Below, piece by piece: positions 10,681 to 61,336 of a stretch of DNA of 64,000 nucleotides. Below the pieces are notes generated by a model. That model did not search any database, had not been told where the DNA came from, and saw nothing but the letters and a program-made list of their open reading frames with translations. The translations under genes and the position numbers were made by a program. Every line of letters begins with the position of its first letter. Position 1 is the stretch's first letter. This DNA is from Flavobacteriales bacterium (GTDB lineage: Bacteria > Bacteroidota > Bacteroidia > Flavobacteriales_D > Sanyastnellaceae), in contig JBIKZA010000001.1 in assembly GCA_044354975.1 (NCBI GenBank), forward strand, positions 11,094 through 75,093, read 5' to 3'.

Positions 10681-10761
10681 AGTTATTTTTTTGCGAAATT
10701 AACCCAAAACAAACGCCACAAAAAAATTCTTCTCAATTCGTTAATATGCTTGATGCGCGCT

Positions 10762-10769: not shown

Positions 10770-10818
10770 TAACTCTATCGAAGCGTTTTCAATTAACCTA
10801 TTTTAAAGAAGGAAAAGC

Positions 10819-11844: not shown

Positions 11845-11864
11845 TTCGTTAACACGAAAGCAGA

Positions 11865-13207: not shown

Positions 13208-13212
13208 TTACC

Positions 13213-16343: not shown

Positions 16344-16413
16344 TGACCCTTCGGGATGACCACTTCGTGGATGACGCTGCGCGATGACCCTTTGGGATGA
16401 CGCTGCGCGATGT
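16339..16413 (+). repeat. mini-hairpin array, ATGA linker (5 units)
   Basis: tga|ccc-ttc-ggg|atga|ccac-ttc-gtgg|atga|cgc-tgc-gcg|atga|ccc-ttt-ggg|atga|cgc-tgc-gcg|atg. Starts on the rodA stop codon. Confidence 0.85.
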
Positions 16414-16513
16414 AAGGCATAGTTAACATTTCAACGTTTGTAAGGTTTGTAAGAACGTTTTCTTCTGTTGTAACCTAATTTCTACTTTAGCGTAATATCG
16501 AATATACGCGCAC

Positions 16514-19651: not shown

Positions 19652-19728
19652 AAAAAATAAAGTTTTTTTGAGAAAAGTGTAACCTTTTTAGGTCGATAGG
19701 GGTAAAAGAAGCATAACCTATTTGACTT

Positions 19729-20226
19729 ATGAAAAACTCAATCACAATCTCCATCTTCGCAGCAGTTCTTTCTCTAAGCCTTGTGTCTTGTCAGAAAGAA
19801 TTCTACATGCCATCTGCACCGGTATCAGCAGCCGACACGACCACAACTGTTTCGAATTCAGAAATAACTGGCCCTACAGCTGTTTTAGGTGAAGATGTTG
19901 CTAAGTTGAACTTCGTATGGCTTCAGCCAGAAGGCTCAAACGCAAATCTTCAAGGGGTGAAGATTGAAATTGCAGACAAGAGTGGTCAAATCGTGTTTTC
20001 AGCAATAGATGTAATGGCAGCTGGTGACGATATGTTTCAGTGGTATCCTGGAATTATCCTTCAAGCAGACGAGTATACTTTCACCATGAAATCAGCGTCT
20101 GGCAACGTATTGAGTGTTTCAACACTAAATGTTGCAGAAGCTTTCCAACAAGACGAATACATTCACCAAGCAAACGGAGCGAAGTTTTTCCTTCAAATGA
20201 CTTGGGAAAAAGCTTCAGAAATATAA
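19729..20226 (+). CDS. hypothetical lipoprotein
   Basis: Signal peptide with lipobox LSLVSC; no recognisable family. Confidence 0.55.
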   Translation: MKNSITISIFAAVLSLSLVSCQKEFYMPSAPVSAADTTTTVSNSEITGPTAVLGEDVAKLNFVWLQPEGSNANLQGVKIEIADKSGQIVFSAIDVMAAGDDMFQWYPGIILQADEYTFTMKSASGNVLSVSTLNVAEAFQQDEYIHQANGAKFFLQMTWEKASEI

Positions 20227-20250
20227 GCTTAGGTTAGTTAGGTATGAGAC

Positions 20251-20276
20251 AACCCCTTCTCGCGAAGGGGTTTTTT
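20251..20276 (+). terminator. rho-independent terminator
   Basis: aaccccttc-tcgc-gaaggggtt hairpin followed by a T6 run. Confidence 0.8.
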
Positions 20277-20291
20277 CGTGAAATAAATAAT

Positions 20292-20324
20292 GCAGTTTGT
20301 GTACCTATATAAGCAGTTTGTGTA
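20292..20324 (+). promoter_or_regulatory. perfect 12-bp direct repeat GCAGTTTGTGTA x2 with 21-bp period upstream of the hybrid kinase gene
   Basis: Copies at 20292-20303 and 20313-20324, 16-48 nt upstream of ATG 20340. Confidence 0.4.
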
Positions 20325-20339
20325 TAAATTAGCAAGCCC

Positions 20340-22322
20340 ATGACTCAAGAAGAAGAAATAGATTATTTACGTCAACGCGTCGCTGATTTGGAGGAATCTT
20401 GTCGAATGGCCGAAAAGCTATTAGTTAATCGTGAAGCGAAGTTCAAGGGTATTATAGATAATTTTCGTTTAGGATTATTAGAGGTTGAGCCGAGCGGTGT
20501 TATTATTGACGCAAACGAATCGTTTTGTGAAATGAGTGGTTTTAGTATTGATGAACTGTTTGGAAAGGACGGTGGTGAGATGTTGTTAGATGAGTTTGAG
20601 AAGGAACGTATGAAGGAGCGCAACGCCTCACGAAGTGAAGGTGAAACAGATGTTTATGAGTTGCGCGTATTAAATAAGAATGGAGAAACGCGTTATTGGC
20701 TGGTGAGTGCTGCGCCGTTGTTAGGCGATGATGGAAATATACACGGTTCTATTGGTATTCATTGGGACATTACCGAAATGAAGCAATTGGAATTTGAGTT
20801 GAAGGGAGCCCGTCAAAAAGCAGAAGAATCGTCGAAAGCGAAGGCTATGTTCTTGGCGAACATGAGTCATGAAATTCGCACCCCTCTGAATGGAATTGTG
20901 GGCATGGCCGAGCAGCTGTCGCAATCGCAGCTCGATGCGGACCAGCGATATTTCACCGATATCATGCGATCAGCGTCTTCTACCCTGCTTTCGATTATTA
21001 ATGACGTGTTAGACATTTCGAAAATTGAATCTGGAAAATTTAGCATTGAAACGACCCCTTTCAACTTAAACGAAACCATTCGAAGAACACTTAGCATTTT
21101 TGGAGAGAAGGCTAAACAAAGCAATTTATCGTTGGACATTGAGCTAATGGACGATCGGGGAATTATGCATCTGGGAGATCCACACCGCCTAAGTCAGGTG
21201 CTTTTCAACATTGTTGGAAATGCAATGAAGTTCACTCAAGTAGGATACGTGCGAGTTACCTCACAACTTGCTCGAGGAGAAAACGATATGTGCTTCGTTT
21301 CGTTTTCAATTGAAGACACGGGGGTTGGAATGGATATGGCTTATTTGACAAAGGTGTTTGAAGCGTTTACCCAAGAAGACGCGAGCGTTACTCGAAAGTT
21401 TGGAGGAAGCGGCCTAGGCTTGAGTATCGCGCGAAACATTGTGCACATTATGGGAGGCACCATTGAAATTGAAAGCGAAAAAGGGAAAGGTACCCGGGTT
21501 AACATTCGCATTCCAATGAGAATATCGAATGAAAAAACGAAACAGGATATAGTAGAAATTACAGATTTACAAAAATCGCTTAAAGGTCTTCGCGTCTTAG
21601 CTGTTGAAGACAATGAGCTGAATCGCATGGTTCTTCAAGTTATCTTAAAAAAGTGCGAAGTTGTTTTAACCATTGCGCATAATGGTCAAGAGGCCATTGA
21701 TCTTATTCAACAACAAGAATTTGACCTTGTGCTAATGGATGTTCAGATGCCAATCGTTGATGGATTAGAAGCCACGAAGTACATCCGGAATGAATTGAAA
21801 ATGATCATCCCGATTATTGGATTGAGCGCAAACGCCATGCGTGAAGAGGTTGAGATTTGTAAGCAGGCGGGTATGAACGATTATTTGGTGAAACCTTATT
21901 CAGAACGAGTGTTGGTGGAAATAATGAAAAAGTGGAGTACTGAAGTGATGGCGACAGAATCTAAAAAGGATGGGAATGAAGTTGCGGAAGAGTTAGATCT
22001 TTCCGTTTTGAAACAATACGTAGGAAATGATATTGACGCATTGAGAGATGTTGTTACCGGATACCTAAAGCACCTTCCCCCACAATTGGACCGACTGGAA
22101 TTGGCTTTGGTTGGTTCAGATGTTTTGGCTTTGCGTCACGAGCTTCATCAGTTGAAAGCGAGCATGGAAATTATAGGTGTCAGACCAGACGGACTATCTT
22201 TTGCAGCCATTTCGAACGAATTAAAATCAGATGGTTTATCTGACCTTGTGAAAACTGCCATTAACTCTGTTATTACAAAAGGAAAGGACGCCATTATTAG
22301 TCTACGCAAGACCGTTGAATAG
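20340..22322 (+). CDS. hybrid sensor histidine kinase/response regulator (PAS-HisKA-HATPase-REC-Hpt)
   Basis: PAS region, H-box SHEIRTPLNG, G-boxes, receiver (DLVLMDVQMPIVDG) and a C-terminal Hpt-like HQLKASMEIIG. Confidence 0.9.
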   Translation: MTQEEEIDYLRQRVADLEESCRMAEKLLVNREAKFKGIIDNFRLGLLEVEPSGVIIDANESFCEMSGFSIDELFGKDGGEMLLDEFEKERMKERNASRSEGETDVYELRVLNKNGETRYWLVSAAPLLGDDGNIHGSIGIHWDITEMKQLEFELKGARQKAEESSKAKAMFLANMSHEIRTPLNGIVGMAEQLSQSQLDADQRYFTDIMRSASSTLLSIINDVLDISKIESGKFSIETTPFNLNETIRRTLSIFGEKAKQSNLSLDIELMDDRGIMHLGDPHRLSQVLFNIVGNAMKFTQVGYVRVTSQLARGENDMCFVSFSIEDTGVGMDMAYLTKVFEAFTQEDASVTRKFGGSGLGLSIARNIVHIMGGTIEIESEKGKGTRVNIRIPMRISNEKTKQDIVEITDLQKSLKGLRVLAVEDNELNRMVLQVILKKCEVVLTIAHNGQEAIDLIQQQEFDLVLMDVQMPIVDGLEATKYIRNELKMIIPIIGLSANAMREEVEICKQAGMNDYLVKPYSERVLVEIMKKWSTEVMATESKKDGNEVAEELDLSVLKQYVGNDIDALRDVVTGYLKHLPPQLDRLELALVGSDVLALRHELHQLKASMEIIGVRPDGLSFAAISNELKSDGLSDLVKTAINSVITKGKDAIISLRKTVE

Positions 22323-50268: not shown

Positions 50269-52266
50269 TTATAATTTAATAATACGCTCTTTATAAGTTG
50301 TATTACCAGCAATAATTTGCACGTTATAAATTCCTGACTTTAAGTCCGACAAATTAATACTCAGTGGTGAGCTTAGGTATTTAATTTTCTCATTTTTAAC
50401 TACTCTACCAGACATGTCATAGATTACAAGATCTAGATTATTTTCTTTGAAGTTGGTAGTTTCAATGAACAATTGATCAGCTGTAGGATTTGGATAAACT
50501 CTAATTTGGTTGTTTACCGTTGCTAATTCTGACACCCCAATACTTGGCTGAACATTCATGCTGAAATTACAAATTTGACCACCGAAATCAATCGAGAAAC
50601 TAGCGGTTCCCGACGTGGATGGTGTTCCTGTAATTGAAATGGCAATAATACCGTTACCATTAGCAAGCACCCCTTGGCTAATGTTTGCAGTTAATCCAGT
50701 AACTCCTGTAGAGGCAATGTTAATAGCATTGTAATTCCCTCCGTTTCCACCGGAATATGGAAGAGTCGCAGAAACAGCAGATGCTACAGTGCCTTGGGTT
50801 AAGCTGCCTGAAGTTTGAACATTTGCGCAATCCAAAGATGCAACTGAGGCAGATGTTGGAATTGGGGGTTGACCCGCATTATATTCAATGTTAAATGAAG
50901 AAAGCATAAAGACAGGTGGTTGAGCAGCTCCGAAAATATAATATCCCGTGGCAACTTGAAACGGTAGGCTAAACGAATAGGTTTGAGGATAGTTGTAATC
51001 AAATACAAAGTCGAACTGTGATGTTACCGCAGTTGCTCCGGCGGCTATTGGGTTAGGTGTGTCTTGAAAATAGTTATACCAACTAATAGGATATACTGGA
51101 CCGGAAGTTCCTACATCACCCCACCAGATATGAATATCGCCAATGTTATTGTAATAGCTTGTGCCATCGAAATAAAATAGCCCTCCCTGAACAAAATTAG
51201 CATCAAATTCAGAGTTGTTATTTATTTTAATGAACGTTTCAATCTGTTCATTTGGCTCAACCAGCCCATCTCCGTCTCCCACGCTATCTGGGTTATCGTC
51301 GTCATCAACTGTGCGTGAGTGCATTGAAATCGCCTTAATGGGTATAGGAATACAAGGGGTAGAATACTCAATCCCATCTTCAACAACGACAACCTCGAAA
51401 TATGCAGTGAAATTTTGGGTTACAGTATCATGAACCATGAATTCAAATTCATTGGTCGACCATGCGTTATTGTTCCAAGCCACATTGTTTAATCCTGCCG
51501 TGCTGTCGGTAATAGTGATTTGAGTGTTGTTTGTTCTTAATTTACAAGAACCAGAAACAATGCTTTGGCCATTTATTTTTCTGTTCTGAGTTTGAAATTT
51601 AAAACGAATAGGCACGCCTACATTGATTAGGTTAGCAGGGTTGTTTGGGTTTTCATTTATAGAAGCCGGTAATACATTAATGGCATTGCCTTGATCATCA
51701 AATATATTGGCCCCGTTGTAGACATAATCAAAATAGGTGTTACCTAAGTTCGTAAGCGTCTGTTGATCAACGAAAGCAATGTTGGTCAAATAAACTTCTG
51801 AGTTTGGCACACATGGGTCAGGTGGTGGTGGTGAAGTAACGCAAAAACTCCAAACGTTAGGGTTTCCGTTACCGTTAAGAGGAGCACCTACTGCATTGCC
51901 GTCAGCATAAACTTGAAAAGTTGCACCACCGTCTGTATAGTCATCTACATAAATCAGATCAAAACAAGAACCGGTTGTTAAACAACCTACAGACTCAGTA
52001 ACAACAGTGTTACTTGCATAGGCACCTGGGTCACCTGGTGATGCAATTTGTGCATTCGACCCTGCACATCCAACGTTTGTGTTACCAAAAGTTCCGATAA
52101 TACCGTTGCCGCAGCCAGCTCCAGTATTGGTGATTTGCCAAAAACACTCGTAACCATATTGGTCAGTTGTGACATCTACGGTTACGTTTTGTTGTCCTGA
52201 GGGACATTGAGCTAGAGCGCCGAGACAGACGCTTAGAAAAGTAAGAAAAGTAAAGGTTTTTTTCAT
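50269..52266 (-). CDS. large secreted protein with T9SS C-terminal sorting domain
   Basis: Signal peptide, Cys-rich N-terminal module and a Por tail IRVYPNPTADQLFIE... Visibly more A+T-rich than neighbouring housekeeping genes. Confidence 0.8.
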   Translation of the reverse strand: MKKTFTFLTFLSVCLGALAQCPSGQQNVTVDVTTDQYGYECFWQITNTGAGCGNGIIGTFGNTNVGCAGSNAQIASPGDPGAYASNTVVTESVGCLTTGSCFDLIYVDDYTDGGATFQVYADGNAVGAPLNGNGNPNVWSFCVTSPPPPDPCVPNSEVYLTNIAFVDQQTLTNLGNTYFDYVYNGANIFDDQGNAINVLPASINENPNNPANLINVGVPIRFKFQTQNRKINGQSIVSGSCKLRTNNTQITITDSTAGLNNVAWNNNAWSTNEFEFMVHDTVTQNFTAYFEVVVVEDGIEYSTPCIPIPIKAISMHSRTVDDDDNPDSVGDGDGLVEPNEQIETFIKINNNSEFDANFVQGGLFYFDGTSYYNNIGDIHIWWGDVGTSGPVYPISWYNYFQDTPNPIAAGATAVTSQFDFVFDYNYPQTYSFSLPFQVATGYYIFGAAQPPVFMLSSFNIEYNAGQPPIPTSASVASLDCANVQTSGSLTQGTVASAVSATLPYSGGNGGNYNAINIASTGVTGLTANISQGVLANGNGIIAISITGTPSTSGTASFSIDFGGQICNFSMNVQPSIGVSELATVNNQIRVYPNPTADQLFIETTNFKENNLDLVIYDMSGRVVKNEKIKYLSSPLSINLSDLKSGIYNVQIIAGNTTYKERIIKL

Positions 52267-52382: not shown

Positions 52383-52742
52383 ATGGAACCGATTGATCTT
52401 GCATCTAATATTCGGCTTATTCGGGAAGCTAGATCTCTAAGCCAGGAATATGTAGCAGTGCAATTGAACATTACACAGCAGGCCTATTCAGCCATTGAAA
52501 AGAAACCTGAAAAGGCTACTTTGAAACGTCTAAAAGATATTGCCGTTATTTTCCAAGTGCCCATGATTACTCTGTTAGGAGAGGATGAGGAGGCGCTTCA
52601 ACAGAATTTCAACCAAGCGGGTGGAAATGCAGGGACAAAATCAAAAAATATCTATACAAACGCAGACGTTTTGGAAAGGCTTGTTGCTGAACTGAAGGAT
52701 GAAATTAATTTTCTAAGGTCTGCTCTTTTGAAAAAAAAGTGA
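52383..52742 (+). CDS. XRE-family helix-turn-helix transcriptional regulator
   Basis: N-terminal HTH_3 pattern (IRLIREARSLSQEYVAVQLNITQQAYSAIEK) and a C-terminal coiled-coil-like tail. Confidence 0.8.
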   Translation: MEPIDLASNIRLIREARSLSQEYVAVQLNITQQAYSAIEKKPEKATLKRLKDIAVIFQVPMITLLGEDEEALQQNFNQAGGNAGTKSKNIYTNADVLERLVAELKDEINFLRSALLKKK

Positions 52743-52915: not shown

Positions 52916-52998
52916 TTTTTGAAGAGGAGCAAAAGTAAGAAAATTCTAAGCCCTCCCCCTCGCGTTTGTCTTTATTTTTGCAGTCTAACTCGCGCGAT

Positions 52999-55416
52999 AT
53001 GAAAATCTCTTACAAACTTCTTTCACAATTGGTTCAACCCCTGCCGGCCCCAGAACTAGTGGCTGCAACCCTTACCAGAACCGGTCTTGAAGTGGAAGGC
53101 ATTGAAAGCGTAGAGAAAATTCCAGGCGGATTGAAAGGCGTGGTAGTCGGACATGTACTCGAATGCGAAAGACACCCCGATGCCGATCGCTTGTCAATTA
53201 CAAAAGTGAATCTCGGTGAAGGCGAGCTCGTTCAGATTGTTTGTGGTGCGCCGAATGTGGCTGTCGGACAAAAAGTGTTGGTTGCTACTGTTGGAACAAC
53301 TTTGTATCCCTCATCTGGCGAGTCTTTCACCATTAAAAAAAGTAAAATTCGCGGAGCAGAATCTATAGGCATGATCTGCGCGGAAGACGAACTAGGCCTC
53401 GGTGCTTCACACGACGGTATTCTTATTCTTCCAGCAGAAACAGTGGTTGGAATTCCGGCTGCTGTTGCGCTCAACATAGAAAGCGATGCATGCCTCGAAA
53501 TTGGTATTACTCCGAATAGAACAGATGCTCTTTCACATGCAGGTGTGGCGCGCGACTTCGCTGCTGCGTGGAATTTGGAAAACGAAAATAAGGTTGCGCT
53601 TTCAAGCACCACCGCCCCAGCGATTTCCTTCCAACCGAAAAATTGGAAATTAGATCTTCACGAAAACACAGAGTGCACGCGCTATGCGTTCGCGGTGATT
53701 AGCGGAATTGAAAATCAAGAGACTCCTACTTTCATCAAAGAAACATTGGCTGTTATCGGCGTGAAGAGCGTGAACCTGTGTGTAGACGTGACCAACTTCG
53801 TTCAACACGAATTGGGACAGCCGCTGCATGTGTTCAAGGCGAATGATTTTCCGAATCAGACCATCACGGTTCGAAATGCAAATACAGATGAAGCGTTAGA
53901 AACCCTCGACGGTGTTTCGCGCAAACTCACCAGCGAGGACGTGGTTATTTCCAACCAAAACGAAGTGCTTTGCATGGGTGGTGTTATGGGTGGAATAAAT
54001 GCGGGCGTGAGCGCTGAAGATTCGTTCGTTGTTTTTGAAAGTGCGTGCTTCAATGCGGTGCGTGTGCGCAAGAGCGCGAAGCGTCACCAGATTCATTCCG
54101 ATTCTTCGTTCCGCTTTGAACGCGGAGTTGCGGTTGATGGAATTCCGAATGCGTTAGCGCGTGCTTGGGAATTAATTCAAGCAGAAAATCCAAATGCGGT
54201 GCTGGTGGAAGCAGAAGATATTTATCCGGTTGCACTTCCGAAAACCGAAATTGAAGTCAAGGAAAGTTATTTGAAATCGCTTTTAGGAATTGACATTCCA
54301 AGCGAAATTGTTGTTTCCATATTGAACGATTTACAGTTCGAAGTTTCAACTGTTGAAGGTGGTTGGAAAGTGCTTGTGCCTTACAACCGTGTGGAAGTAA
54401 CGCGTCCGGCCGACGTGGCGGAAGAGGTGCTTCGCATCTACGGATACGACAAAGTTGAATTGCCTTCGCGCATGACGCTTTCTTTGAATACCAAAGGAAA
54501 AACAGAGAGTCTGCATTTCCGTTTGGCCGACCTGCTTGTTGCAGAGGGCTACACCGAAATCATGAACATGTCGTTAACGAAAAGCAAGTACGCTGAAGCG
54601 TTCGATGCGGCCTTGGGTGTGAACAGTGTTTCATTGTTGAATCCGTTGAGCAAAGATCTTTCGCACATGCGTAGTTCGTTGTTGTTCGGTGGAATGGAAA
54701 GCATTTCGTTGAATGAAAAACACAGAGCAACCGATCTTCGTTTGTTTGAAATTGGAAAGGAATACCGCAAGACGGAAAACGGATATAAAGAGAAGCGCAA
54801 ATTAGCGTTGTGGTTGTGTGGAAAGGAAAGCGCAGAATCATGGAAAAACCCTTCGAATGCTTCGTCATTAGCGCAATTGCGAGCGGTGGTTGAAAAAATT
54901 TTGAATGCATTGGGCATTCAGCAATGCGATATTGTTTCGCTTCAAGACTCTCCCATTTTCGCATACGGAATGGAGCTTTCTTCTCAGAAAAAATCGTTGG
55001 TGAAGTTGGGACGTGTGAATCCAGAAATTCAAGAAGCAACCGATGTTGAGCAAGAAGTATTCTATGCTGAATTCGATTTCGACACATTGGAAAAATTGAG
55101 AACGCAGCAGCGCAATGCCTTCCAACCGTTGAATAAATTTCCTTGGGTGCGTCGCGATTTATCGCTGTTGTTGAACAAGGAAACTACGTTCGAAAGTCTT
55201 CGTCAGTCTGCCTTAAAAAGCGAAAAGAAATTATTGAAGGAAGTGAATTTGTTCGATGTTTACGAAGGCAAGAATCTTCCAGAAGGCAAGAAATCTTACG
55301 CTCTGAAATTCATACTTCAAGACGCGCAGCAGACCTTAACTGATGAGGTTGTAGAGAAGAGCATGCAGCGCATTTTGCAAGGCTTGCAGACGGAGTGTTC
55401 GGCGGAGTTGAGGTAG
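52999..55416 (+). CDS. pheT: phenylalanine--tRNA ligase beta subunit
   Basis: Starts MKISYKLLSQLV; tRNA-binding, B3/4, B5 and FDX-ACB domain order. ORF-track start 52966 rejected. Confidence 0.95.
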   Translation: MKISYKLLSQLVQPLPAPELVAATLTRTGLEVEGIESVEKIPGGLKGVVVGHVLECERHPDADRLSITKVNLGEGELVQIVCGAPNVAVGQKVLVATVGTTLYPSSGESFTIKKSKIRGAESIGMICAEDELGLGASHDGILILPAETVVGIPAAVALNIESDACLEIGITPNRTDALSHAGVARDFAAAWNLENENKVALSSTTAPAISFQPKNWKLDLHENTECTRYAFAVISGIENQETPTFIKETLAVIGVKSVNLCVDVTNFVQHELGQPLHVFKANDFPNQTITVRNANTDEALETLDGVSRKLTSEDVVISNQNEVLCMGGVMGGINAGVSAEDSFVVFESACFNAVRVRKSAKRHQIHSDSSFRFERGVAVDGIPNALARAWELIQAENPNAVLVEAEDIYPVALPKTEIEVKESYLKSLLGIDIPSEIVVSILNDLQFEVSTVEGGWKVLVPYNRVEVTRPADVAEEVLRIYGYDKVELPSRMTLSLNTKGKTESLHFRLADLLVAEGYTEIMNMSLTKSKYAEAFDAALGVNSVSLLNPLSKDLSHMRSSLLFGGMESISLNEKHRATDLRLFEIGKEYRKTENGYKEKRKLALWLCGKESAESWKNPSNASSLAQLRAVVEKILNALGIQQCDIVSLQDSPIFAYGMELSSQKKSLVKLGRVNPEIQEATDVEQEVFYAEFDFDTLEKLRTQQRNAFQPLNKFPWVRRDLSLLLNKETTFESLRQSALKSEKKLLKEVNLFDVYEGKNLPEGKKSYALKFILQDAQQTLTDEVVEKSMQRILQGLQTECSAELR

Positions 55417-55421
55417 TCTAT

Positions 55422-56531
55422 TTAGTCCACCTTCCATTTCTTTACTAGTTCGTAGTTCACACTGCGTCCGCCTTCTTTGGTTTGTTGTAATATTCTTTTT
55501 TCTACGAGATCTTTAATATCGCGCAAGGCAGTGTCTGACGATGTTTTATTGATTTTCGCCCATTTCGAACTTTGTAATTTACCATCGAAATTGTCAAGCA
55601 GCATGTTCAATATTTTTCTTTGTCTTTCGTTAATTGAAGTCTTTTCGTGGTGTTTCCAGAATGCTGATTTTATGAGAATTTGTTGCATTGTCTTTTCTGT
55701 TGCAAGCATTGCGTTTTTAAGACAATGAAGAAACCAGTTGATCCATTCTGTTATGTCATTCTTGCTGTGTTGAACTTTTTGTAAAACAGTGTAATACATT
55801 TTTCGTTCTTCTAATATTTGGCTCGACATGCTGTAAAAGCGCTCTCCGCTGCCTTCAGCGCGTGCAAGTACCATATCGGTAAGAGCACGAGCCATGCGAC
55901 CGTTACCATCGTCGAACGGATGGATAATGATAAACCAAAAGTGTGCTATAGCTGCTTTTAGGACTGGATCAAGTGAATTGTCTTTATTAAACCAGGTGAT
56001 GAATTTCTTCATTTCTGCTTTTACGAACTTTGGCTTAACTGCTTCATAATGTACTTTCTCTTTTCCCATTGCACCTGAAACAATTTGCATTTCTCCAGTG
56101 CGATAACATCCAACTTCTATGGTATAAGGTCCGCTAAATCCGGTTGGGAAGAGCGCTGCATGCCAGCCGAACAAACGTTTTTCAGTTAATGGTGAATCAA
56201 ATCGTTGTGTAGCATCAAGCATCATCTCCACGATCCCTTCAATGTGACGACTGCTTTTAATTAGACCTGCTGAATTAATTCCTAATCGTCTGGCAATGGA
56301 AGAGCGCACTTGATCATAGTTGAGCAGTTCACCTTCTATTTCCGATGATTTAACAACATCGAGTGTTAATGCGTTAAGCGTTGCATCTTCTTTTGCCGAA
56401 AATCCAAGAGCATTCATCTGTCCGATGATTTTTCCTTGCCTCAATCGTACGTCTCCGAATATGGAATTAATCTCTGATTCACGCCAAGTGAAATCAGTCC
56501 AGTTTTTGTATTCGTAGATGTATTTTGCCAT
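55422..56531 (-). CDS. Fic-family protein (AMPylase-type, with in-cis inhibitory helix and C-terminal winged-helix region)
   Basis: Fic motif HPFDDGNGRMARAL; upstream SSEIEG matches the (S/T)xxxE(G/N) inhibition motif. Confidence 0.9.
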   Translation of the reverse strand: MAKYIYEYKNWTDFTWRESEINSIFGDVRLRQGKIIGQMNALGFSAKEDATLNALTLDVVKSSEIEGELLNYDQVRSSIARRLGINSAGLIKSSRHIEGIVEMMLDATQRFDSPLTEKRLFGWHAALFPTGFSGPYTIEVGCYRTGEMQIVSGAMGKEKVHYEAVKPKFVKAEMKKFITWFNKDNSLDPVLKAAIAHFWFIIIHPFDDGNGRMARALTDMVLARAEGSGERFYSMSSQILEERKMYYTVLQKVQHSKNDITEWINWFLHCLKNAMLATEKTMQQILIKSAFWKHHEKTSINERQRKILNMLLDNFDGKLQSSKWAKINKTSSDTALRDIKDLVEKRILQQTKEGGRSVNYELVKKWKVD

Positions 56532-56563
56532 AGCCTCTAAGTTATCTGCGGCAAATATAGGAA

Positions 56564-57187
56564 TTATTCACCGCATATTTGCGGCGAATAGAACTGTTTT
56601 TCACCGCAAGAGGTTTGAAGCGAATAGTATTGACGAGTGTAAAAAATCGAAGAAATTACTCTCGTTTCTGAAATAAGAGTAATATTCACCCGCGAAATAT
56701 CCAATGCCGTTGTCCCACTATTCCTGACCACTTTCCTGGGATTTTGGTCGTAATCTTTCTGTTGAATATTTACGACGAAGTCTCCTTTTTGGAATTGCGT
56801 TTGGAAAAAGACCATTCCCTTAGCGTTGTTAATGATAAGATTCATGGTGTCGCGCCGATCTCTAATTATCTGAAGTCTTGCATGGTTTTTAATGGTTGAC
56901 GTGCAATAATAATTATCCATTGACAAACGCCGAAAGCCAACACTTGACTCACTCAAATCATTTATTCGATAGTTTTTAATTCGAAGTTTCTCTATTCGGG
57001 GACTGTGATGGATGAACTTTTTATCAATCACAACAGTGTCACCCTCGGTTACTTCAATAATACTGAAATATAAATATTCATTGCCAACAGGTTGGGCCTG
57101 TGCGACAAAGGCGAGAAGTAAAAACAAGAATGAAATCAGGTATTTCAAGCCTTTATGGCGGAGTTGAGAGTTTATCTTTCTCTCCAT
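56564..57187 (-). CDS. hypothetical secreted protein
   Basis: Signal-peptide-like LISFLFLLLAFVAQAQ; A+T-rich; no family recognised. Confidence 0.45.
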   Translation of the reverse strand: MERKINSQLRHKGLKYLISFLFLLLAFVAQAQPVGNEYLYFSIIEVTEGDTVVIDKKFIHHSPRIEKLRIKNYRINDLSESSVGFRRLSMDNYYCTSTIKNHARLQIIRDRRDTMNLIINNAKGMVFFQTQFQKGDFVVNIQQKDYDQNPRKVVRNSGTTALDISRVNITLISETRVISSIFYTRQYYSLQTSCGEKQFYSPQICGE

Positions 57188-57432
57188 TTGTTTTCAAGGC
57201 TCATGAAATCTTCAAGATGGTAAACAGCATCTGAATAGTTGAACAAGATTGTTCGATCATCTACAATTGTGTATTTCTTTCTTTGGGCTACTGAAAGTTT
57301 TTGAAGCTCTGGAAAATATTTCAGAGGTACAATGATTATCCTACCATCTTGAAGTTTTAAAGAGATTTTTCCAATTAAATCGAAATTCAATTTTTCAATA
57401 CAGATCGTAGAGTTTTGAAGTGGCGTTCCCAT
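57172..57432 (-). CDS. DUF2442-like small protein
   Basis: 86 aa; pattern ..LKLQDGRIIIVPLKYFPELQKLSVAQRKKYTI..; 16-nt overlap with the downstream ORF. Confidence 0.5.
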   Translation of the reverse strand: MGTPLQNSTICIEKLNFDLIGKISLKLQDGRIIIVPLKYFPELQKLSVAQRKKYTIVDDRTILFNYSDAVYHLEDFMSLENKWRER

Positions 57433-57470
57433 ATTATTTGAATATTCAACTTGTCAAGTTTTATTTTGAG

Positions 57471-57600
57471 GTTGCTTATAACGTTTGGCAGCTACCCGAA
57501 GGTGGCGATTTCGGAGCACTTAACTGTCACCAAGCACAAACTTTGATGGAAGCACATAGCTTGATTTAAACCCTGAGCCGCCACTTTTGGGTAGGTGCTG
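57471..57600 (+). repeat. structured inverted-repeat element, copy A (candidate ncRNA or MITE)
   Basis: 15-bp stem tacccgaaggtggcg/cgccacttttgggta plus cagc/gctg and tcgg/ctga extensions. All pairs are canonical or G:U on the plus strand. Confidence 0.6.
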
Positions 57601-57661
57601 TTAGCGTTTCGTTTGCTCAATATGTGTTGATTATTAACTGTTATTCAATTCTCAGAAATCC

Positions 57662-58648
57662 CTAAAAGGATCGAACTGCGCGTACCCTTTTGGGACTATT
57701 TTTGTTGTAACTGGCGTTTGCGTATGTAATACCTGAACCGAAATCCACTCCCCATGAAGAATCATTATCATATTCTGAACTACTCCAATAACCACTAGGA
57801 TTTAATACCGTAGCCCCAGGAATTTGTGAAAAAGTCATTGAAACATTAAAATAATTATTCCAAAGCATATTTAATTCTTGTATAGATGGCAAGTACCAAT
57901 CATTCTGACCACTGCTAGATGAATTCAAACATAAAACTGCAGCGCTACTTGTATGTCCGATTTGCGAAACAATAGAATTCGAGTTGCCTAATCCATTCCA
58001 ATAACTTTGAGCAGATAAACCTATTAAGGTGTTGTCAACATTACTCCATCCAGACGCTCCACTTAAATCATTTAAATCAACCACAAGTCCGTGTTCTGCT
58101 CCTGAATTATCTTTCCATAAATGGAAAATAACTCCTCCGCCAAATACTTCACCTATATAATGTACGAAACCTCCTACACCTGCTGGTCCTTGTGGACCCG
58201 TTGCGCCCTGTGGACCTGCTGCACCCTGAGGTCCTGACATGGAACTTCCAGAGTTTGCTGCATATAGTGCATATGGCACACTAAGTAATTGACTTGTGCC
58301 AGTTATACTGTAGCTTGATCCTCCCGATGGGTCTGTTTCTGTTTTTAAAAAATAAGGTCCGTTAGCCCAGTCAATTGTTGCGAAGTTACCCGAGACAACA
58401 GTTCCTCCACCAATTTCAATACTTACTAGACCATTGGTATTGGTTGTAGAGGTTTGAGTTTCCACGAAAATAGCAGTGCCACTTGGTGAAGTTTGTAAAA
58501 TGCTAATTCGCATTCCAACGGTAGAGCTTGTTACTAGTGCATTTGATGTATTACGAATTACTGCTTGATAGCTCATTTTGTTTGGTACTTGAGCAAAAAC
58601 ATTTGCAGTCATTAAAATTGCTGCACAAATTGTAATTATTCGTTTCAT
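57662..58648 (-). CDS. secreted protein with short collagen-like G-x-y run and C-terminal DUF1566 (Lcl-type) domain
   Basis: Signal peptide, GPQGAAGPQGATGPQGPAG, and a C-terminal ..DWYLPSIQELNMLW.. pattern. Confidence 0.7.
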   Translation of the reverse strand: MKRIITICAAILMTANVFAQVPNKMSYQAVIRNTSNALVTSSTVGMRISILQTSPSGTAIFVETQTSTTNTNGLVSIEIGGGTVVSGNFATIDWANGPYFLKTETDPSGGSSYSITGTSQLLSVPYALYAANSGSSMSGPQGAAGPQGATGPQGPAGVGGFVHYIGEVFGGGVIFHLWKDNSGAEHGLVVDLNDLSGASGWSNVDNTLIGLSAQSYWNGLGNSNSIVSQIGHTSSAAVLCLNSSSSGQNDWYLPSIQELNMLWNNYFNVSMTFSQIPGATVLNPSGYWSSSEYDNDSSWGVDFGSGITYANASYNKNSPKRVRAVRSF

Positions 58649-58654
58649 GATTTC

Positions 58655-59143
58655 TTAATTTTTAATGATTTTAAATGATTGAACTTTCTTGTTTTCTTGG
58701 TTTACAACATTTATGAAGTAAGTAGCTGCCGGTAAACTCGCGGTGTTTATTTGAGTTTGCTGAGCTGTTACTGGACCACTGGTTAACAATTTACCTTGCA
58801 AATCATAAAGCTGAAAGGCTAACTTCTCGTTGTTGTAATCGCTTATTTGCAAGGTTAAATTCTCTGAAGTCGGGTTTGGAAAAGTAATGAGCGAAAAGTT
58901 CAATGTTGTTTCCTCTATGCCTACAGTGAAAATTTCGTAAGCATGTTGAACACCTTGGGCTTGACTACCCGAACTACCTGTGTTGGTGGAGTATACTACC
59001 TGTCCGATACTGTATGCAACGGTTCCTCCGCTGCCTGTGGCATTTCCTCCACTGGCGTTTGCTGATTCCTGGGCTTGTGCCAAGCCTGCCCATAGCAATC
59101 CTGTTAATAGAAGTAAAATGGGTCTTGATTTGTTTTTAGTCAT
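58655..59143 (-). CDS. small secreted protein with T9SS C-terminal sorting domain
   Basis: Signal peptide, Gly/Ser-rich segment and a Por tail FPNPTSENLTLQI.. Confidence 0.75.
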   Translation of the reverse strand: MTKNKSRPILLLLTGLLWAGLAQAQESANASGGNATGSGGTVAYSIGQVVYSTNTGSSGSQAQGVQHAYEIFTVGIEETTLNFSLITFPNPTSENLTLQISDYNNEKLAFQLYDLQGKLLTSGPVTAQQTQINTASLPAATYFINVVNQENKKVQSFKIIKN

Positions 59144-59208
59144 TTTTTGTTTTACTTGTTAATACTCGCTTTTACTTGTTTTCTGGCTCGTTTCGGTTTT
59201 TACAATGA

Positions 59209-59343
59209 ACGCTAACGTTTTGCAGCTACAAGAAGTTGGCGATTTCGGAGACGAAAACTGTCTGCCACCACAGAACTTGATACGAAGCACAAAACTTCAT
59301 TTAACCACTGAACCGCCAATTTCTTGTAGGTGCTGTTATGTGT
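59209..59343 (+). repeat. structured inverted-repeat element, copy B
   Basis: Stem tacaagaagttggcg/cgccaatttcttgta. Shares gcagctac, ggcgatttcggag, aactgtc, gaagcaca, atttaa and gtaggtgctgtta blocks with copy A. Confidence 0.6.
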
Positions 59344-59360
59344 AGCCTTTCTTTGGTCGG

Positions 59361-59939
59361 CTAGTAAATACATACTTGTCCTTGTCCAATTGGTAAAACA
59401 GATGCAATAACGTCTTCCCTAACTTTGTTGTCGTAAAGTTTTTCAATTGCCCAGCCAACTAAGTCAACTGCTGCCAAACAACCTGCTGCTGTCCCAACAT
59501 TACCACGTGTTACCAAATGTTTGTCTTCAAGGACGTCAACGCCATAATTTTTCAAAGCTTCAAAGGCAGTCGGATAAGTTGTTGCGGAAAGTCCAGTTAG
59601 ATGTCCAAGTGCTGCAATTATTAAAGCACCAGAACACATTGAACAAATTATTTGTCGGCTTGGGTCAAGGTTAAAGCGTTTTAAATAAAGTTCGTCCTTG
59701 ATAACGTTTCTTGTCCCAGGTCCGCTACCAAAAAATACCAGGTCCGAATCATTGCATTCTTCAATAAGTCCGTGAGTTTTTAGGTCAAGCCCACATACAG
59801 ATTTATGGGTCGTTTCTGTCCCAACAATTTTTACTTGAAATTCTTTGTCACGAAATTTAACTCGGTTAAGTAAGTCCCAAGCTAAAAAAATATCAATGTC
59901 CGTGAACTTGTCAAATGCTACTATTACTGCTTTTTTCAT
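59361..59939 (-). CDS. DJ-1/PfpI family protein
   Basis: 192 aa; nucleophile-elbow Cys context IICSMCSGALIIA. Confidence 0.85.
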   Translation of the reverse strand: MKKAVIVAFDKFTDIDIFLAWDLLNRVKFRDKEFQVKIVGTETTHKSVCGLDLKTHGLIEECNDSDLVFFGSGPGTRNVIKDELYLKRFNLDPSRQIICSMCSGALIIAALGHLTGLSATTYPTAFEALKNYGVDVLEDKHLVTRGNVGTAAGCLAAVDLVGWAIEKLYDNKVREDVIASVLPIGQGQVCIY

Positions 59940-59973
59940 GTTATAATTGTCTGTTTTGTTGTCGTCATAAGGT

Positions 59974-60057
59974 TACACATAACTAGCTTATACGCGCTAC
60001 AAACGTGCCCAATACATGTCATTGTAGCGCGATAGGCGCAGGTTTGTTGCGGTTAGC
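59974..60057 (-). repeat. possible shortened, inverted relative of elements A/B
   Basis: tacacataac(t)agc matches the reverse complement of the B 3' end. ctacaa/ttgtagc and gttagc blocks are retained. 10-bp stem cgcgctacaa/ttgtagcgcg. Confidence 0.35.
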
Positions 60058-60121
60058 TAAAGGTAATAGTTTTATTTACAAATCGTCAAATGGTGACCGG
60101 ACTTGTCTAATTTGTATTGCC

Positions 60122-60175
60122 ATGCAACTCATTTTGCAAGGCTTGCAGAGTGAGTGTTCGGCGGAGTTACGCTAA
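60122..60175 (+). pseudogene. orphan copy of the last 17 codons plus stop of pheT
   Basis: Encodes MQLILQGLQSECSAELR*, against MQRILQGLQTECSAELR* at the end of the intact pheT. Confidence 0.75.
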
Positions 60176-61336
60176 AGAAATTTCTTTCGCAATCCCCCTC
60201 GCTTCCGCATCACTCGCAATCAACTCTTCCAACGAAGGCTTCGCGATGAACGTTGCTTTTTGAAGGGTCTTCTCAACGGTTTCGGCAATTTGAAGGAACT
60301 TGATTTCGTCGTTTAAGAAACGAGCAACAGCAATTTCATTTGCAGCATTCAAGATGCAAGGTGCATTGCCGCCTTGTTCCAAAGCTTCGAAAGCAAGACC
60401 CAAACAACGGAACACTTCAATGCGTGGCTTCTCAAAAGTAAACTGCGGATAATCCATGAAGTTGAATCGTGGCCAGTCTGTCTTTACACGCTGCGGATAA
60501 GCCATGGCGTATAAGATTGGCAATTTCATATCGGGTAATCCCAACTGCGCTTTCATGCTGCCGTCTTCAAACTGAACCAAGCTGTGAATAATGCTTTGCG
60601 GATGAACCACCACGTCTATTTGCGACGGCTTCAAATTGAATAACCACTTCGCTTCAATCACTTCCAACCCTTTGTTCATAAGGGTTGCAGAGTCAATGGT
60701 AATCTTCGCGCCCATGGTCCAATTCGGATGCTTCAACGCTTGCGCCTTCGTCACCTCTGCCAACTCTTCAGCAGGCTTTTGTCTGAACGGACCACCACTC
60801 GCGGTAAGAACAATCTTCTCAATAGGATTGTGCCACTCGCCAGCCAAACACTGGAAAATAGCGCTGTGCTCGCTGTCGACCGGATAAATATTCACCCCGT
60901 TTTCTTTCGCTAACTGCGTAATAATTTCTCCAGCAACTACCAAGGTTTCTTTGTTCGCGAGTGCAATGTTTTTCTTCGCAAGAATAGCGCGAACCGTTGG
61001 CGGAAGTCCCGCTGCGCCTACCAATGCGGTTAGCACAATGTCTATGCTGTCCATCTCTACAATCTGCTCCAACGCTTGCTTTCCCGCATACACCTTAATG
61101 TCTGTGGAAGCGAGACCTTCCTTCACTTCAGCGTATTTCGATTCGTCGGTAATGACAACGGCATTCGGATTGAATTTCAAGGCTTGCTGAATAAGCAGCG
61201 TGCTGTTGCTGTGCGCCGTTAACACTTCCACACAAAATTGATCGAGATGTTCTTGAATCACTTCAAGAGTTTGTGTACCTATGGAACCGGTTGAACCGAG
61301 AATAGCAATGTTTTTCAATGCGAATATTTTTTGCAA
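60167..61336 (-). CDS. dxr: 1-deoxy-D-xylulose 5-phosphate reductoisomerase
   Basis: 389 aa; ILGSTGSIG NADPH motif and Dxr signature throughout. TTG start at 61336, or alternatively TTG at 61318. Confidence 0.95.
   Translation of the reverse strand: MQKIFALKNIAILGSTGSIGTQTLEVIQEHLDQFCVEVLTAHSNSTLLIQQALKFNPNAVVITDESKYAEVKEGLASTDIKVYAGKQALEQIVEMDSIDIVLTALVGAAGLPPTVRAILAKKNIALANKETLVVAGEIITQLAKENGVNIYPVDSEHSAIFQCLAGEWHNPIEKIVLTASGGPFRQKPAEELAEVTKAQALKHPNWTMGAKITIDSATLMNKGLEVIEAKWLFNLKPSQIDVVVHPQSIIHSLVQFEDGSMKAQLGLPDMKLPILYAMAYPQRVKTDWPRFNFMDYPQFTFEKPRIEVFRCLGLAFEALEQGGNAPCILNAANEIAVARFLNDEIKFLQIAETVEKTLQKATFIAKPSLEELIASDAEARGIAKEISLA

Follow-up and report, generated by a model that had tools for sequence, protein, structure and literature searches.

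Duplicated pheT tails and a putative truncated integron-like cassette platform in the pheT–dxr interval of a Flavobacteriales bacterium

The pheT–dxr interval of a Flavobacteriales bacterium was analysed within a 64-kb window (the whole stretch of DNA studied), and its features are listed in Table 1. The pheT gene is 92–97% identical to those of relatives. The comparison of composition with the flanks proposed in the initial annotation gave G+C contents of 0.36–0.42 within the segment and 0.45–0.49 in pheT and dxr. All six cargo genes are on the minus strand, and the cargo listed earlier agrees with the Pfam assignments (Fic/DUF4172, DUF2442, Lcl_C, Por_Secre_tail and DJ-1/PfpI). The 4.8 kb that separate pheT from dxr are imported and lie in a hot spot of gene swapping.

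Table 1. Features of the pheT–dxr interval in window coordinates (the arrow marks the junction point)
Feature	Position	Strand	Remarks
pheT (phenylalanyl-tRNA synthetase beta chain)	52966–55416	+	Pfam B3_4, tRNA_synthFbeta, FDX-ACB, tRNA_bind, B5
Functional pheT tail copy, putative imported type	55363–55416	+	last 54 nt of pheT; ends ...GAGTTGAGGTAG
Fic/DUF4172 gene, module Fic1	55422–56531	−	Pfam; 5 nt from the pheT stop
Two 29-bp palindromes (11-7-11) upstream of Fic	56547–56575, 56580–56608	unassigned	repeat search
Secreted hypothetical protein, 207 aa	56564–57187	−	no Pfam match; 3′ part reads through the Fic leader
13-nt pheT-tail remnant TGGCGGAGTTGAG	57156–57168	+	directly past the DUF2442 stop; weak nhmmer match
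DUF2442 gene	57172–57432	−	Pfam; upstream end joins the initial ~45 nt of a third cassette (57481–57433)
attC-like site 2	57479–57606	−	R″ CGCTAAC, R′ G↓TTATAA; G↓TT junction 57482/57481
Putative cassette 2	57482–59215	−	T9SS-sorted small protein (58655–59143), collagen-like/Lcl_C (57662–58648), attC-like site 2; Pfam
attC-like site 1	59213–59341	−	R″ ACATAAC, R′ G↓TTAGCG; G↓TT junction 59216/59215
Putative cassette 1	59216–59982	−	DJ-1/PfpI gene (59361–59939), attC-like site 1
attI-like site	59983–60075	−	AT-rich stretch, imperfect palindrome GCGCTACAA...TTGTAGCGC, then GTATAAGCTAG↓TT
Tyrosine-recombinase gene remnant	60076–60120	−	last 14 codons and stop, AIQIRQVRSPFDDL; translation
Orphan copy, putative ancestral native pheT tail	60122–60175	+	ends ...GAGTTACGCTAA
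dxr (DXP reductoisomerase)	60167–61336	−	Pfam; native C-terminal allele ...AKEISLA and stop (dxr ends compared across loci)

The initial annotation had claimed that two in-frame copies of the pheT tail bracket the segment, and translations and a repeat search bear this out. The functional copy (ATGCAGCGC...GAGTTGAGGTAG, encoding the PheT C-terminus MQRILQGLQTECSAELR) and the orphan copy (ATGCAACTC...GAGTTACGCTAA, encoding MQLILQGLQSECSAELR), both ending in a stop codon, are identical at 46 of the 54 positions and differ at 8. The 17-mer GAGTGTTCGGCGGAGTT, common to both copies, occurs exactly twice in the 64-kb window against an expectation of 0.01, and none of 100 shuffles reached two matches. 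The orphan stop overlaps the dxr stop by 9 nt (60167–60175). The R/L change between the copies had been regarded as conservative, which it is not. All 21 functional pheT tails examined carry Arg at this position; thus, the Leu of the orphan looks like decay after orphaning.

An empty site with overlapping stops, proposed earlier as a synteny check, was found in two relatives (L011 and L166). In both, the end of pheT reads ...GAGTTACGCTAA and shares 9 nt with the dxr stop. The functional tail of L166 is identical to the window's orphan at 52 of 54 positions, and L011 has the same end type as the orphan. The ACGCTAA end of pheT is found only at empty sites, whereas the functional tail of the window is of the other type (GAGGTAG); in all 19 filled relatives having this region pheT ends in ...GAGTTGAGGTA(G/A). 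Two dxr end alleles were seen across the loci. The empty sites support the earlier proposal that pheT and dxr were ancestrally convergent and overlapping, and that the segment was inserted. Their layout is that of the orphan copy. According to these alignments, the orphan beside dxr is most probably the original pheT tail, and the tail now used by pheT would have arrived with foreign DNA.

Judging from its sequence, the dxr-proximal half is a truncated, decayed integron-like gene-cassette platform. The order is a recombinase remnant, an attI-like site, cassette 1 (DJ-1), an attC-like site, cassette 2, another attC-like site and then the beginning of a third cassette. The initial annotation had stated that no integrase lies inside. 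This is correct for intact genes, and neither the 64-kb window nor the related loci examined contain an intact recombinase, an excisionase or a transposase; the annotation overlooked the 14-codon tyrosine-recombinase remnant, the attI-like site and the two attC-like sites. The remnant matches the 3′ ends of recombinase genes of Kaistella, Flavobacterium and Chryseobacterium (24 nt, 92%, nucleotide match), and the recombinase C-terminal motif occurs once in the window. The attI-like site aligns with the region 3′ of the recombinase stop in six platforms, with invariant positions in the TATA..AG↓TT junction block. Its palindrome is predicted to form a hairpin, and its junction 11-mer GTATAAGCTAG is also present in L078. 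The covariance model R1 gave 146 bits for attC-like site 1 and 127 bits for site 2 on the minus strand, versus 21 and 15 bits on the plus strand. The region of site 1 is 99% identical to a metagenome contig (L104). The start of cassette 1, TTATGTGTAACCTT, is complementary to AAGGCTACACATAA ahead of its attC-like site (repeat search), and is also found after an attC-like site in L060. The start of cassette 2, TTAGCGTT, is complementary to AACGCTAA preceding its own attC-like site (6/8 in the cassette-end test). The junction between DUF2442 and the third cassette, G↓TTATAAGCAACC, is identical in L004, where it is preceded by a different attC-like site.

The attC-like sites belong to one family of ~125-nt hairpin sequences across genera and environments, covering at least 120 metagenome contigs. 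In the stems, 94% of the cells pair versus 75% in shuffles, and 201 compensatory cells were observed versus 63 in shuffles. The mean complementarity of the cassette ends (of 8) is 5.37 within a cassette, 3.11 across one site and 3.06 for random pairs. In cultured Flavobacteriales, the sites follow a XerA-like recombinase. IntI models match this recombinase only in two pieces, below the cut-offs, so it is without the IntI-specific insertion, which is a defining trait of integron integrases (PMC4889954, PMC8138268). An intact platform is present in Kaistella jeonii, where the recombinase is followed by 11 attC-like sites in 10 kb; arrays are also present on a Chryseobacterium plasmid and in F. 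gillisiae. A platform of the window's kind appears to be widespread in Flavobacteria, and we found no published description of it.

The pheT-proximal half (DUF2442, the secreted protein and Fic) consists of modules that are separated by more pheT-tail copies in relatives. The Fic1 module adjoins pheT or internal tail copies in L003, L007, L014, L019, L020 and L163. The two palindromes upstream of Fic are probably operators, and a truncated copy of this palindrome abuts tail copies in relatives (12 loci compared). The secreted protein (hyp207) has homologues in L002, L005, L018, L163 and L164, and its gene overlaps DUF2442 across the tail remnant. The 13-nt remnant is by itself not significant (nhmmer E = 10), and the equivalent site holds a full or degenerate tail copy in L004, L007, L021 and L032.

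The interval differs in almost every one of ~24 related loci, and 11 different intervals are present among the 16 loci spanning both flanks (window included); the relatives are mostly metagenome-assembled contigs, where repeats can be mis-joined. In 14 relatives, module boundaries carry extra copies of the pheT tail, every one directly oriented. Among these copies, ~6–7 families can be told apart, with lengths of ~13 to 54 nt and left edges that vary. The left part is degenerate and the rightmost ~25 nt are well conserved, a pattern to be expected if the right part is continually renewed by crossovers within the copies. The same left module and tail copy are joined to different right partners exactly after GAGTT. 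The tail copy of the C6 module is followed by ACGCTAA and dxr in L006, L009 and L010, and by GAGGTAG and DUF2442 in L004. Next to the copy beside the sigma-factor module comes the second Fic-family gene in L002, but Fic1 in L014. In L032, a truncated DUF4160 gene is fused to dxr with GCG at the junction. These comparisons suggest that the interval is a recombination hot spot where small accessory modules are gained and lost, the window being one mosaic. The island was previously read as one integrative element; it is better described as a mosaic of small modules and a truncated integron-like platform.

We favour pheT-anchored homologous and illegitimate recombination over classical site-specific integration as the origin of the duplication and the mosaic, and place about half of our confidence in it. 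The sequence comparisons show the anatomy, the empty sites, the turnover, the cassette signature and the recombinase remnant; from these we infer the following order of events and recombination pathway behind the duplication. In an ancestor or donor with an intact platform, the XerA-like tyrosine recombinase would assemble cassettes by recombining attC-like sites in their folded form with the attI-like site, G↓TT being the point of exchange. Incoming DNA would comprise the 3′ part of pheT and downstream modules; it would be joined on one side by a homologous crossover inside pheT and on the other, within the pheT tail of the recipient, through short homology or illegitimately. Each entry event would leave the old tail behind as a non-coding copy, and these copies would serve as portable homology. 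One crossover in the body of pheT and another in a tail copy would add modules, whereas recombination between direct repeats would delete them and regenerate the empty site. A deletion or illegitimate join would have stripped the recombinase gene to 14 codons, so that the array would now be frozen. The left edge of the orphan is fused to recombinase codon −14, and only 3 nt (GCA) are shared with native pheT. This edge is an illegitimate junction with the recombinase remnant rather than an att-core boundary. Further illegitimate fusions in the region are the DUF4160–dxr fusion of L032, the two dxr end alleles and the overlap of hyp207 with DUF2442. Several points count against pheT-anchored recombination. 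No donor genome with an intact platform beside pheT was found. At ~13 nt, the orphan in L020 falls below the length needed for RecA-type homology, and the core GAGTGTTCGGCGGAGTT, kept even in non-coding copies that are otherwise degenerate, could be a protein-binding site. Moreover, at least three insertions into a naive site can be told apart: that of the window type, that of the C6-module type (L006/L009/L010) and that of Fic1 in L020. In all three, an identical TTGAGGTAG restores one and the same reading frame, and a targeted site-specific system would account for this no less well.

Campbell-type site-specific integration would be such a system, and we regard it as possible, but doubtful. 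Small integrase-less elements with an attP mimicking the pheT tail would be integrated at the pheT 3′ end by an integrase encoded elsewhere and pile up in tandem, older tail copies being eroded by later deletions. Insertions recur at exactly one place, all regenerating ...ELR and the stop with TTGAGGTAG, and every tail copy is in direct orientation. The 17-nt core is conserved in non-coding copies, the empty sites resemble precise excision products, and the ~13-nt orphan of L020 would be a short core. However, no integrase, excisionase or transposase was found in the 64-kb window or the related loci examined, and one fixed crossover point does not predict the spread of copy lengths (~13 to 54 nt) between modules. 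The tail sequence was found as attP in no phage or provirus; the single viral match is a chance match inside a coding region. The initial annotation had proposed site-specific integration regenerating the pheT 3′ end, and the fusion of the window's 54-nt boundary to a truncated recombinase gene, together with the variable tail lengths, argues against this.

It is unlikely that the pheT tail is a double-stranded attI-like or attG-like target of the Flavobacterial integron-like recombinase with the crossover at GAG↓TT. The interval would then be a single array driven by this recombinase and founded on pheT, and the tail-bounded modules would be analogues of the delta-attI-type cassettes of class 1 integrons. 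Genomic attG insertion of cassettes and functional delta-attI cassettes are documented for IntI1 (PMC12901181, citing Loot et al. 2024). The partner switch lies exactly after GAGTT in every tail copy, G↓TT is likewise the junction of the family's attI-like and attC-like sites, both the attI-like junctions and the native tail read AG↓TTA, and the orphan had a platform of this family as its immediate neighbour. On the other hand, the tail has its G↓TT on the strand opposite to that of the attC-like sites in the same island, there is no similarity to attI-like or attC-like sites past AG↓TTA, and the tail core was not found in 642 kb of sequence from the family's metagenomic arrays and plasmids. 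In addition, attI × attC recombination alone gives no target duplication. An assembly artefact or chance repeat, with the two copies not both in the real genome, is scarcely credible: nothing positive speaks for it beyond the fact that repeats in metagenome-derived sequence can be mis-assembled, the copies differ at 8 positions and have their own unique flanks, the chance expectation is 0.01, and assemblies made independently in different projects show the same arrangement of a functional tail plus internal or orphan copies.

Tandem accretion of integrative elements is known at the 3′ ends of genes, as are cis-mobilizable elements (CIMEs), for example at fda in Streptococcus thermophilus. As in these, segments that are non-autonomous and lack an integrase lie between direct repeats of a housekeeping-gene 3′ end, several segments are in tandem, the gene stays intact, and relatives have empty sites. 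In contrast, the pheT modules are very small (0.6–2.6 kb), a related autonomous element was not found, the repeat lengths vary, and at least the window's repeat boundary is an illegitimate junction. Homology-facilitated illegitimate recombination in natural transformation combines one homologous anchor with a microhomology join. The single long anchor (here pheT), the variable right junctions with little or no homology (GCA at the orphan and recombinase remnant, GCG at dxr and DUF4160 in L032) and the foreign low-G+C DNA adjoining the anchor are similar. However, its usual outcome replaces recipient DNA and leaves the anchor end unduplicated, and the repeated duplication of the last ~54 nt needs extra assumptions, such as instability of longer duplicates.

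In the attG insertions described in PMC12901181 (Loot et al. 2024 as cited there), attC-bounded cassettes likewise occupy an ordinary chromosomal intergenic position, and delta-attI-type cassettes are likewise bounded by partial copies of a double-stranded site instead of attC. The window cassettes differ from these in that they are still joined to an attI-like site and a recombinase remnant; the platform would have moved or decayed whole, and the cassettes would not have been singly inserted. Compared with sedentary chromosomal integrons, the recombinase of the platform family is closest to archaeal XerA (its activity is putative), its gene and the cassettes are transcribed in the same direction, and the sites form a single ~125-nt sequence family across genera and environments. 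The platform shares with integrons the co-oriented cassettes, each ending in an imperfect-palindrome site with invariant AAC...GTT, the site structure kept by compensatory changes while the sequence varies, and the circular permutation of cassette ends at G↓TT. Intact arrays of the family are headed by a tyrosine recombinase with an attI-like site, the cargo is typical of integrons (toxin–antitoxin pairs, defence genes and small secreted proteins), and group II intron and IS insertions are present inside the arrays. The window's own copy, without a recombinase, resembles CALINs (attC clusters without an integron integrase).

The 3' end of pheT is present twice in the window, once as the functional end of the gene and once as an orphan copy beside dxr. 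The two copies differ at 8 of 54 positions, both are in frame as the C-terminus of PheT, and they have in common the 17-mer GAGTGTTCGGCGGAGTT, which occurs twice in the window against 0.01 occurrences expected. The repeats are direct, they flank the island, and pheT is regenerated. As the initial annotation claimed, the orphan stop overlaps the dxr stop by 9 nt. Both flanking genes were confirmed by Pfam, and so was the reported cargo (Fic/DUF4172, DUF2442, Lcl_C, a T9SS-sorted protein and DJ-1/PfpI), all on the minus strand. The composition check that had been proposed gave a G+C content of about 0.36–0.42 in the segment, against 0.45–0.49 in pheT and dxr. The observation therefore stands. 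The reading built on it, a decayed or trans-mobilised product of site-specific integration, holds in part: the island is a mosaic within an insertion hot spot, and one half of it appears to be a decayed integron-like platform. The features are listed in the table, where L-numbers denote the loci and contigs compared.

Features of the island, its surroundings and the loci compared
Feature	Locus	Coordinates	Strand	Remark
Functional pheT tail	window	55363-55416
Orphan pheT-tail copy	window	60122-60175
pheT-tail remnant, 13 nt	window	57156-57168		just past the DUF2442 stop
dxr C-terminal allele	window	60167-60187		equivalents in L002, L005, L007, L018, L021, L032
attC-like site 1, ~125 nt	window	59341-59213	minus	between cargo genes
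attC-like site 2, ~125 nt	window	57606-57479	minus	between cargo genes
Recombinase remnant	window	60120-60076		last 14 codons, AIQIRQVRSPFDDL, and stop; cf. ...LQQIRSPFDDL and stop in L047
Palindromes of the Fic leader, 29 bp (11-7-11)	window	56547-56575 and 56580-56608		upstream of Fic, after a terminator-like hairpin
XRE-type HTH gene	window	52383-52742		just upstream of pheT, low-G+C stretch (0.34)
665-aa protein with T9SS sorting domain	window	50269-52266
DJ-1 gene end, site 1 and 16 nt past the G↓TT junction	window	59197-59511
Counterpart of 59197-59511	L104 (Ga0208853_1001262)	6698-7012		99% identical, then four different cassettes
DUF4160-like gene (MPKIAIYKF...PPHLHV)	L007	4171-4449		upstream of DUF2442
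DUF4160-like gene	L021	2806-3102		upstream of DUF2442; counterpart in L002
SulP transporter and carbonic anhydrase pair	L003	19701-22320		immediately past an attC-like site
Group II intron reverse transcriptase and IS110 transposase genes	L157	8995-12777	opposite to cassettes	adjoin attC-like sites
Recombinase and array of Kaistella jeonii	L160 (LR134503.1)	10001-21044
Interval filling	L020			Fic alone
Interval filling	L007			Fic, DUF2442 and DUF4160
Interval filling	L006, L009			lipoprotein pair
Interval filling	L002, L164			ECF sigma and anti-sigma, second Fic, more
Interval filling	L032			AbiE-like pair
Interval filling	L010, L018, L021			T9SS cargo proteins

A PheT scan with one genome per species gave 24 loci of close relatives, and dxr look-ups added four. 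Those from the PheT scan are freshwater Flavobacteriales/Crocinitomicaceae MAGs with PheT 92–96% identical. An empty site with overlapping stops, which the initial annotation had suggested looking for, was found in two loci, L011 and L166, where nothing separates pheT from dxr and the two genes share 9 nt. In both, pheT ends ...GAGTTACGCTAA, the end type of the window orphan, and the functional tail of L166 is identical to the orphan at 52 of 54 positions. The functional tail ends GAGTTGAGGTA(G/A) in every filled locus. Because the orphan has the end type of the empty sites and matches L166 at this level, it is the ancestral tail, and the functional tail is the imported one. A CGC-to-CTC change (Arg-to-Leu) is unique to the orphan; the residue is Arg in all functional tails. 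The Dxr C-terminus occurs in the clade as two alleles, the native ...AKEISLA and the alternative ...A[GA][ESD][IF]LL, each followed by the stop, and these alleles account for the loci without an orphan. A fusion through GCG microhomology joins dxr to a truncated DUF4160 gene in L032. The alleles and this fusion together indicate that the last six Dxr residues tolerate replacement.

The content of the pheT–dxr interval differs in almost every relative, and the fillings tabulated are not exhaustive, further kinds being present in other loci. The cargo combination of the window was found in none of the related loci compared. A tail-profile search detected extra non-coding tail copies in the islands of 14 relatives; an island has up to three of them, each placed at a module boundary and in direct orientation. 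According to the left flank, the copies form 6–7 families of about 13 to 54 nt; good conservation is limited to the right ~25 nt, the left parts being degenerate. One left-hand module with its tail copy can precede different partners, and the partner changes always exactly after GAGTT. At the position of the 13-nt remnant of the window, L004, L007, L021 and L032 carry full or degenerate tail copies. With nested tail copies, empty sites and a dozen or so different fillings, a suggestive repeat has become a documented hot spot, which is a natural system for how integrase-less modules stack at the end of an essential gene.

In relatives the hot spot most often contains secreted T9SS cargo, and at window positions 1-52266 a T9SS sorting domain is found in four of the 44 large ORFs, one of them encoding the 665-aa protein. 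The relatives L010, L012, L016, L018 and L021 have no Fic; of the second palindrome of the Fic leader only the left arm is left there, and a pheT-tail copy adjoins the cut. The palindromes were considered as recombination sites and rejected, as they are more simply explained as operators together with the terminator of the upstream gene. In relatives the DUF4160-like gene and DUF2442 make up a two-gene pair, and in the window and L004 a cassette start and an attC-like site stand in place of the DUF4160-like partner.

The two attC-like sites, read in the direction of the genes, start with ..TAAC, form a long imperfect hairpin and end with ..CG↓TTA. A covariance model of the site gave minus-strand scores of 146 bits for site 1 and 127 bits for site 2 (plus strand: 21 and 15 bits), and detected no further site elsewhere in the 64-kb window. 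The stretch ahead of the DJ-1 cassette, tried as a third site, reached 6.5 bits (E = 3.5), which is not significant; it corresponds to the attI-like site. No Rfam family was found for 55.0–60.5 kb at E ≤ 1. A pattern from the window repeats matched at least 120 metagenome contigs, in which the element forms co-oriented arrays of up to 7 copies spaced 0.5–3 kb apart. When 60 diverse copies were aligned, AAC and G.T were invariant and compensatory changes were present in 15 of the 17 stem pairs. The stem cells are paired in 94.3% of cases, against 75.3% in shuffles and 24–41% with partners slid, and cells with both sides changed number 201, against 63 in shuffles. The element thus has the organization of attC, an imperfect inverted repeat R''-L''...L'-R' with AAC...GTT whose structure is kept above its sequence. 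Three stem positions are unpaired in the consensus (columns 22/131, 29/124 and 32/121 of the site alignment A2). At two of them A is opposite C on the cassette-sense strand, which is G.T on the complementary strand, and the complementary strand folds more stably (-25.2 vs -22.5 and -21.7 vs -16.5 kcal/mol). Judging from the predicted folds, these features are a possible signal for strand choice.

The cassette signature was the decisive test. Within the same cassette, the 8 nt after GTT and the 8 nt before the next AAC are complementary at a mean of 5.37 of 8 positions (mode 6–7, n = 79); the mean was 3.11 between both flanks of one site and 3.06 for random pairs. Circular cassettes opened at G↓TT produce such pairing. 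Both complete cassettes of the window (DJ-1; T9SS protein with Lcl_C) fit this crossover, and the cassette starts TTATGTGTAACC and TTATAAGCAACC sit behind different upstream sites in L060 and L004. With two sites and no intact integron integrase nearby, the window array qualifies as a CALIN, for which two attC are enough, provided that the sites count as attC. The L104 segment matching the DJ-1 end and site 1 may represent either a second array with this cassette or an alternative state of the window locus. In L003 no dxr follows pheT within 10 kb. The SulP/carbonic anhydrase pair of this locus may be a mobile cassette, since proteins 83–93% identical to the carbonic anhydrase fill the best 120 of 7673 matches at E ≤ 1e-80.

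Only one protein family recurs on the array contigs, that of a tyrosine recombinase; it is very large and has at least 7995 homologues. In the Chryseobacterium sp. SNU WT5 plasmid NZ_CP041688.1 (L157/L156), at least 7 sites lie past a gene annotated 'site-specific tyrosine recombinase/integron integrase' and on its strand, with IS110, a group II intron and transposases inserted among them. The intron recalls the group IIC-attC introns of classical integrons. On the Kaistella jeonii chromosome, the gene of a 347-aa XerA-like recombinase lies behind core genes, and 11 sites are found in the 10 kb past it, one per gene or toxin–antitoxin pair. Flavobacterium gillisiae (L161) has at least 3 sites, and the Emticicia oligotrophica plasmid NC_018742.1 (L158) at least 4. 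The cargo of the cultured strains includes Gp49/HTH, HepT/MNT, ParDE and MazEF pairs, as well as restriction and metal-related genes. The recombinase of intact platforms is closest to archaeal XerA, XerA is also its best NCBIfam model, and the cut-offs of TIGR02249 and NF011946 are not reached. Its similarity to IntI models and VchIntIA is confined to two separate pieces; the best PDB matches are XerA 4a8e and 5hxy, with IntI4 (2a3v) matched in two stretches. This two-piece, sub-cut-off match indicates a recombinase without the IntI-specific insertion, by which integron integrases are defined (PMC4889954, PMC8138268). The adjacent IntI of a complete integron, with that insertion in its catalytic domain, is thus lacking. 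In K. jeonii, F. gillisiae, the Chryseobacterium plasmid, L047 and L051 the recombinase gene points the same way as the cassettes, unlike the integrase of a complete integron, which is divergent from promoterless cassettes driven by Pc; the recombinase of L152 may be divergent.

In six platforms the recombinase stop is followed by an AT-rich stretch, a 60–70-nt palindrome of variable sequence, TATA..AG↓TT and the first cassette. The 138 nt of the window from the orphan to the DJ-1 cassette have the same layout. These 7 sequences have the architecture of attI, which separates an integrase gene from the first cassette and is joined to the latter at G↓TT, and the function is putative. The junction 11-mer GTATAAGCTAG↓TT is also present in L078. 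The initial annotation found no integrase inside the island. This is true of intact genes, and a XerA-like gene truncated to 14 codons is nevertheless present; its C-terminal nucleotide motif occurs once in the window. The layout and the remnant together indicate that the dxr-proximal half of the island is a platform minus its recombinase. A motif scan of all ORFs of at least 150 aa detected no intact recombinase in the window and close loci, and none of the ~24 related loci examined encodes an integrase or transposase. The Pfam summary of the 44 window ORFs gives 25 of 67 families, and absence is not proven by Pfam alone. Neither the island nor the window holds an element with its own integrase beside an att site. 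Four dxr-based look-ups revealed no intact platform beside dxr or pheT; new architectures and the second empty site were obtained instead.

For the origin of the duplication we favour, with moderate confidence, homologous recombination anchored in pheT together with illegitimate recombination. Incoming DNA would cross over with pheT by homology at one end and be joined to the recipient tail at the other, illegitimately or through short homology. The resulting tail copies would then be portable homology for further additions and deletions, including return to the empty state. This integrase-free model is preferred because of the variable copy lengths, the conservation gradient, the other illegitimate fusions and the absence of an integrase from ~24 loci. 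At the left edge of the orphan, pheT sequence meets the truncated recombinase gene, and GCA is all that they have in common there. This boundary is an illegitimate join or a deletion endpoint; it does not delimit an att core. Site-specific integration of the classical kind, with the recombinase supplied in trans, is less probable but a serious rival. It would account for the recurrence of insertions at one place, for the constant restoration of ...ELR and stop, and for the 17-nt core kept even in decayed copies. However, constant-length att repeats from a fixed crossover point are not what is found, given the lengths and families of the copies and the illegitimate boundary in the window.

The tail itself might be the target of the integron-like recombinase, comparable to attG sites or delta-attI cassettes (PMC12901181). 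This reading is attractive in that all switches fall at GAG↓TT and the orphan had the platform as its neighbour; on the other hand, the attC-like sites have the opposite polarity and the tail core is missing from the other arrays of the family. The XerA-like family is tied to attC-like arrays, not to the pheT tail. With up to 3 mismatches, GAGTGTTCGGCGGAGTT had no match in 642 kb of metagenomic arrays and plasmids, and the tail repeats are therefore specific to the clade. We consider this explanation improbable. Causes other than the four explanations weighed are given little weight, and an assembly artefact is very improbable.

Several particular candidates were rejected. The one exact match of the tail pattern in viral contigs, a candidate phage attP, lies within a coding region with unrelated flanks and is a chance match. 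A target-site duplication by transposition does not fit, given the excessive length of 54 nt and the two-base codon swap that distinguishes the copies. The tail has no 11-6-11 structure of a dif/Xer (IMEX-like) site. Cassette insertion at a minus-strand G↓TT inside the dxr end would destroy the dxr stop, and the differing junctions that suggested a site-specific boundary inside dxr are two dxr end alleles and one later deletion.

A repeat-flanked island at the 3' end of a gene is a known kind of feature, and it most resembles integrase-less elements accreted in tandem, such as CIMEs. Beyond this, the island led to a structured family of ~125-nt sites with the full signature of integron cassettes, linked in cultured strains to a Xer-like recombinase. 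We tentatively propose, with less than even confidence, that the island is a decayed member of a widespread Flavobacteriales/Cytophagales class of integron-like platforms, with a co-oriented 347-aa XerA-like recombinase without the IntI insertion, an attI-like palindrome and ~125-nt attC-like sites joined at G↓TT. No prior description of this family was found in the literature on Bacteroidota/Flavobacteria attC, CALIN and integron-like elements, of which our coverage was incomplete. If the recombinase drives the arrays, the IntI-specific insertion is no prerequisite for integron-type cassette capture, and current integron finders would at best score the platforms as integrase-less cassette clusters. 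If the link is functional, the arrays represent a large overlooked cassette gene pool in freshwater and wastewater Bacteroidota (toxin–antitoxin pairs, defence genes, secreted proteins), and the step from Xer-type to integron-type recombination is testable in culturable Kaistella and Chryseobacterium strains.

In surveys, integrons are nearly absent from Bacteroidetes: according to IntegronFinder 2.0, these contain only integrases without cassettes and one complete integron, in Salinibacter (PMC9024848), and tyrosine recombinases without the IntI domain near attC were judged not to be IntI (PMC4889954). The recombinase described here lacks the defining feature of IntI, and its orientation is unlike the classical one; the cassettes have both the structural and the junctional features of integron cassettes.
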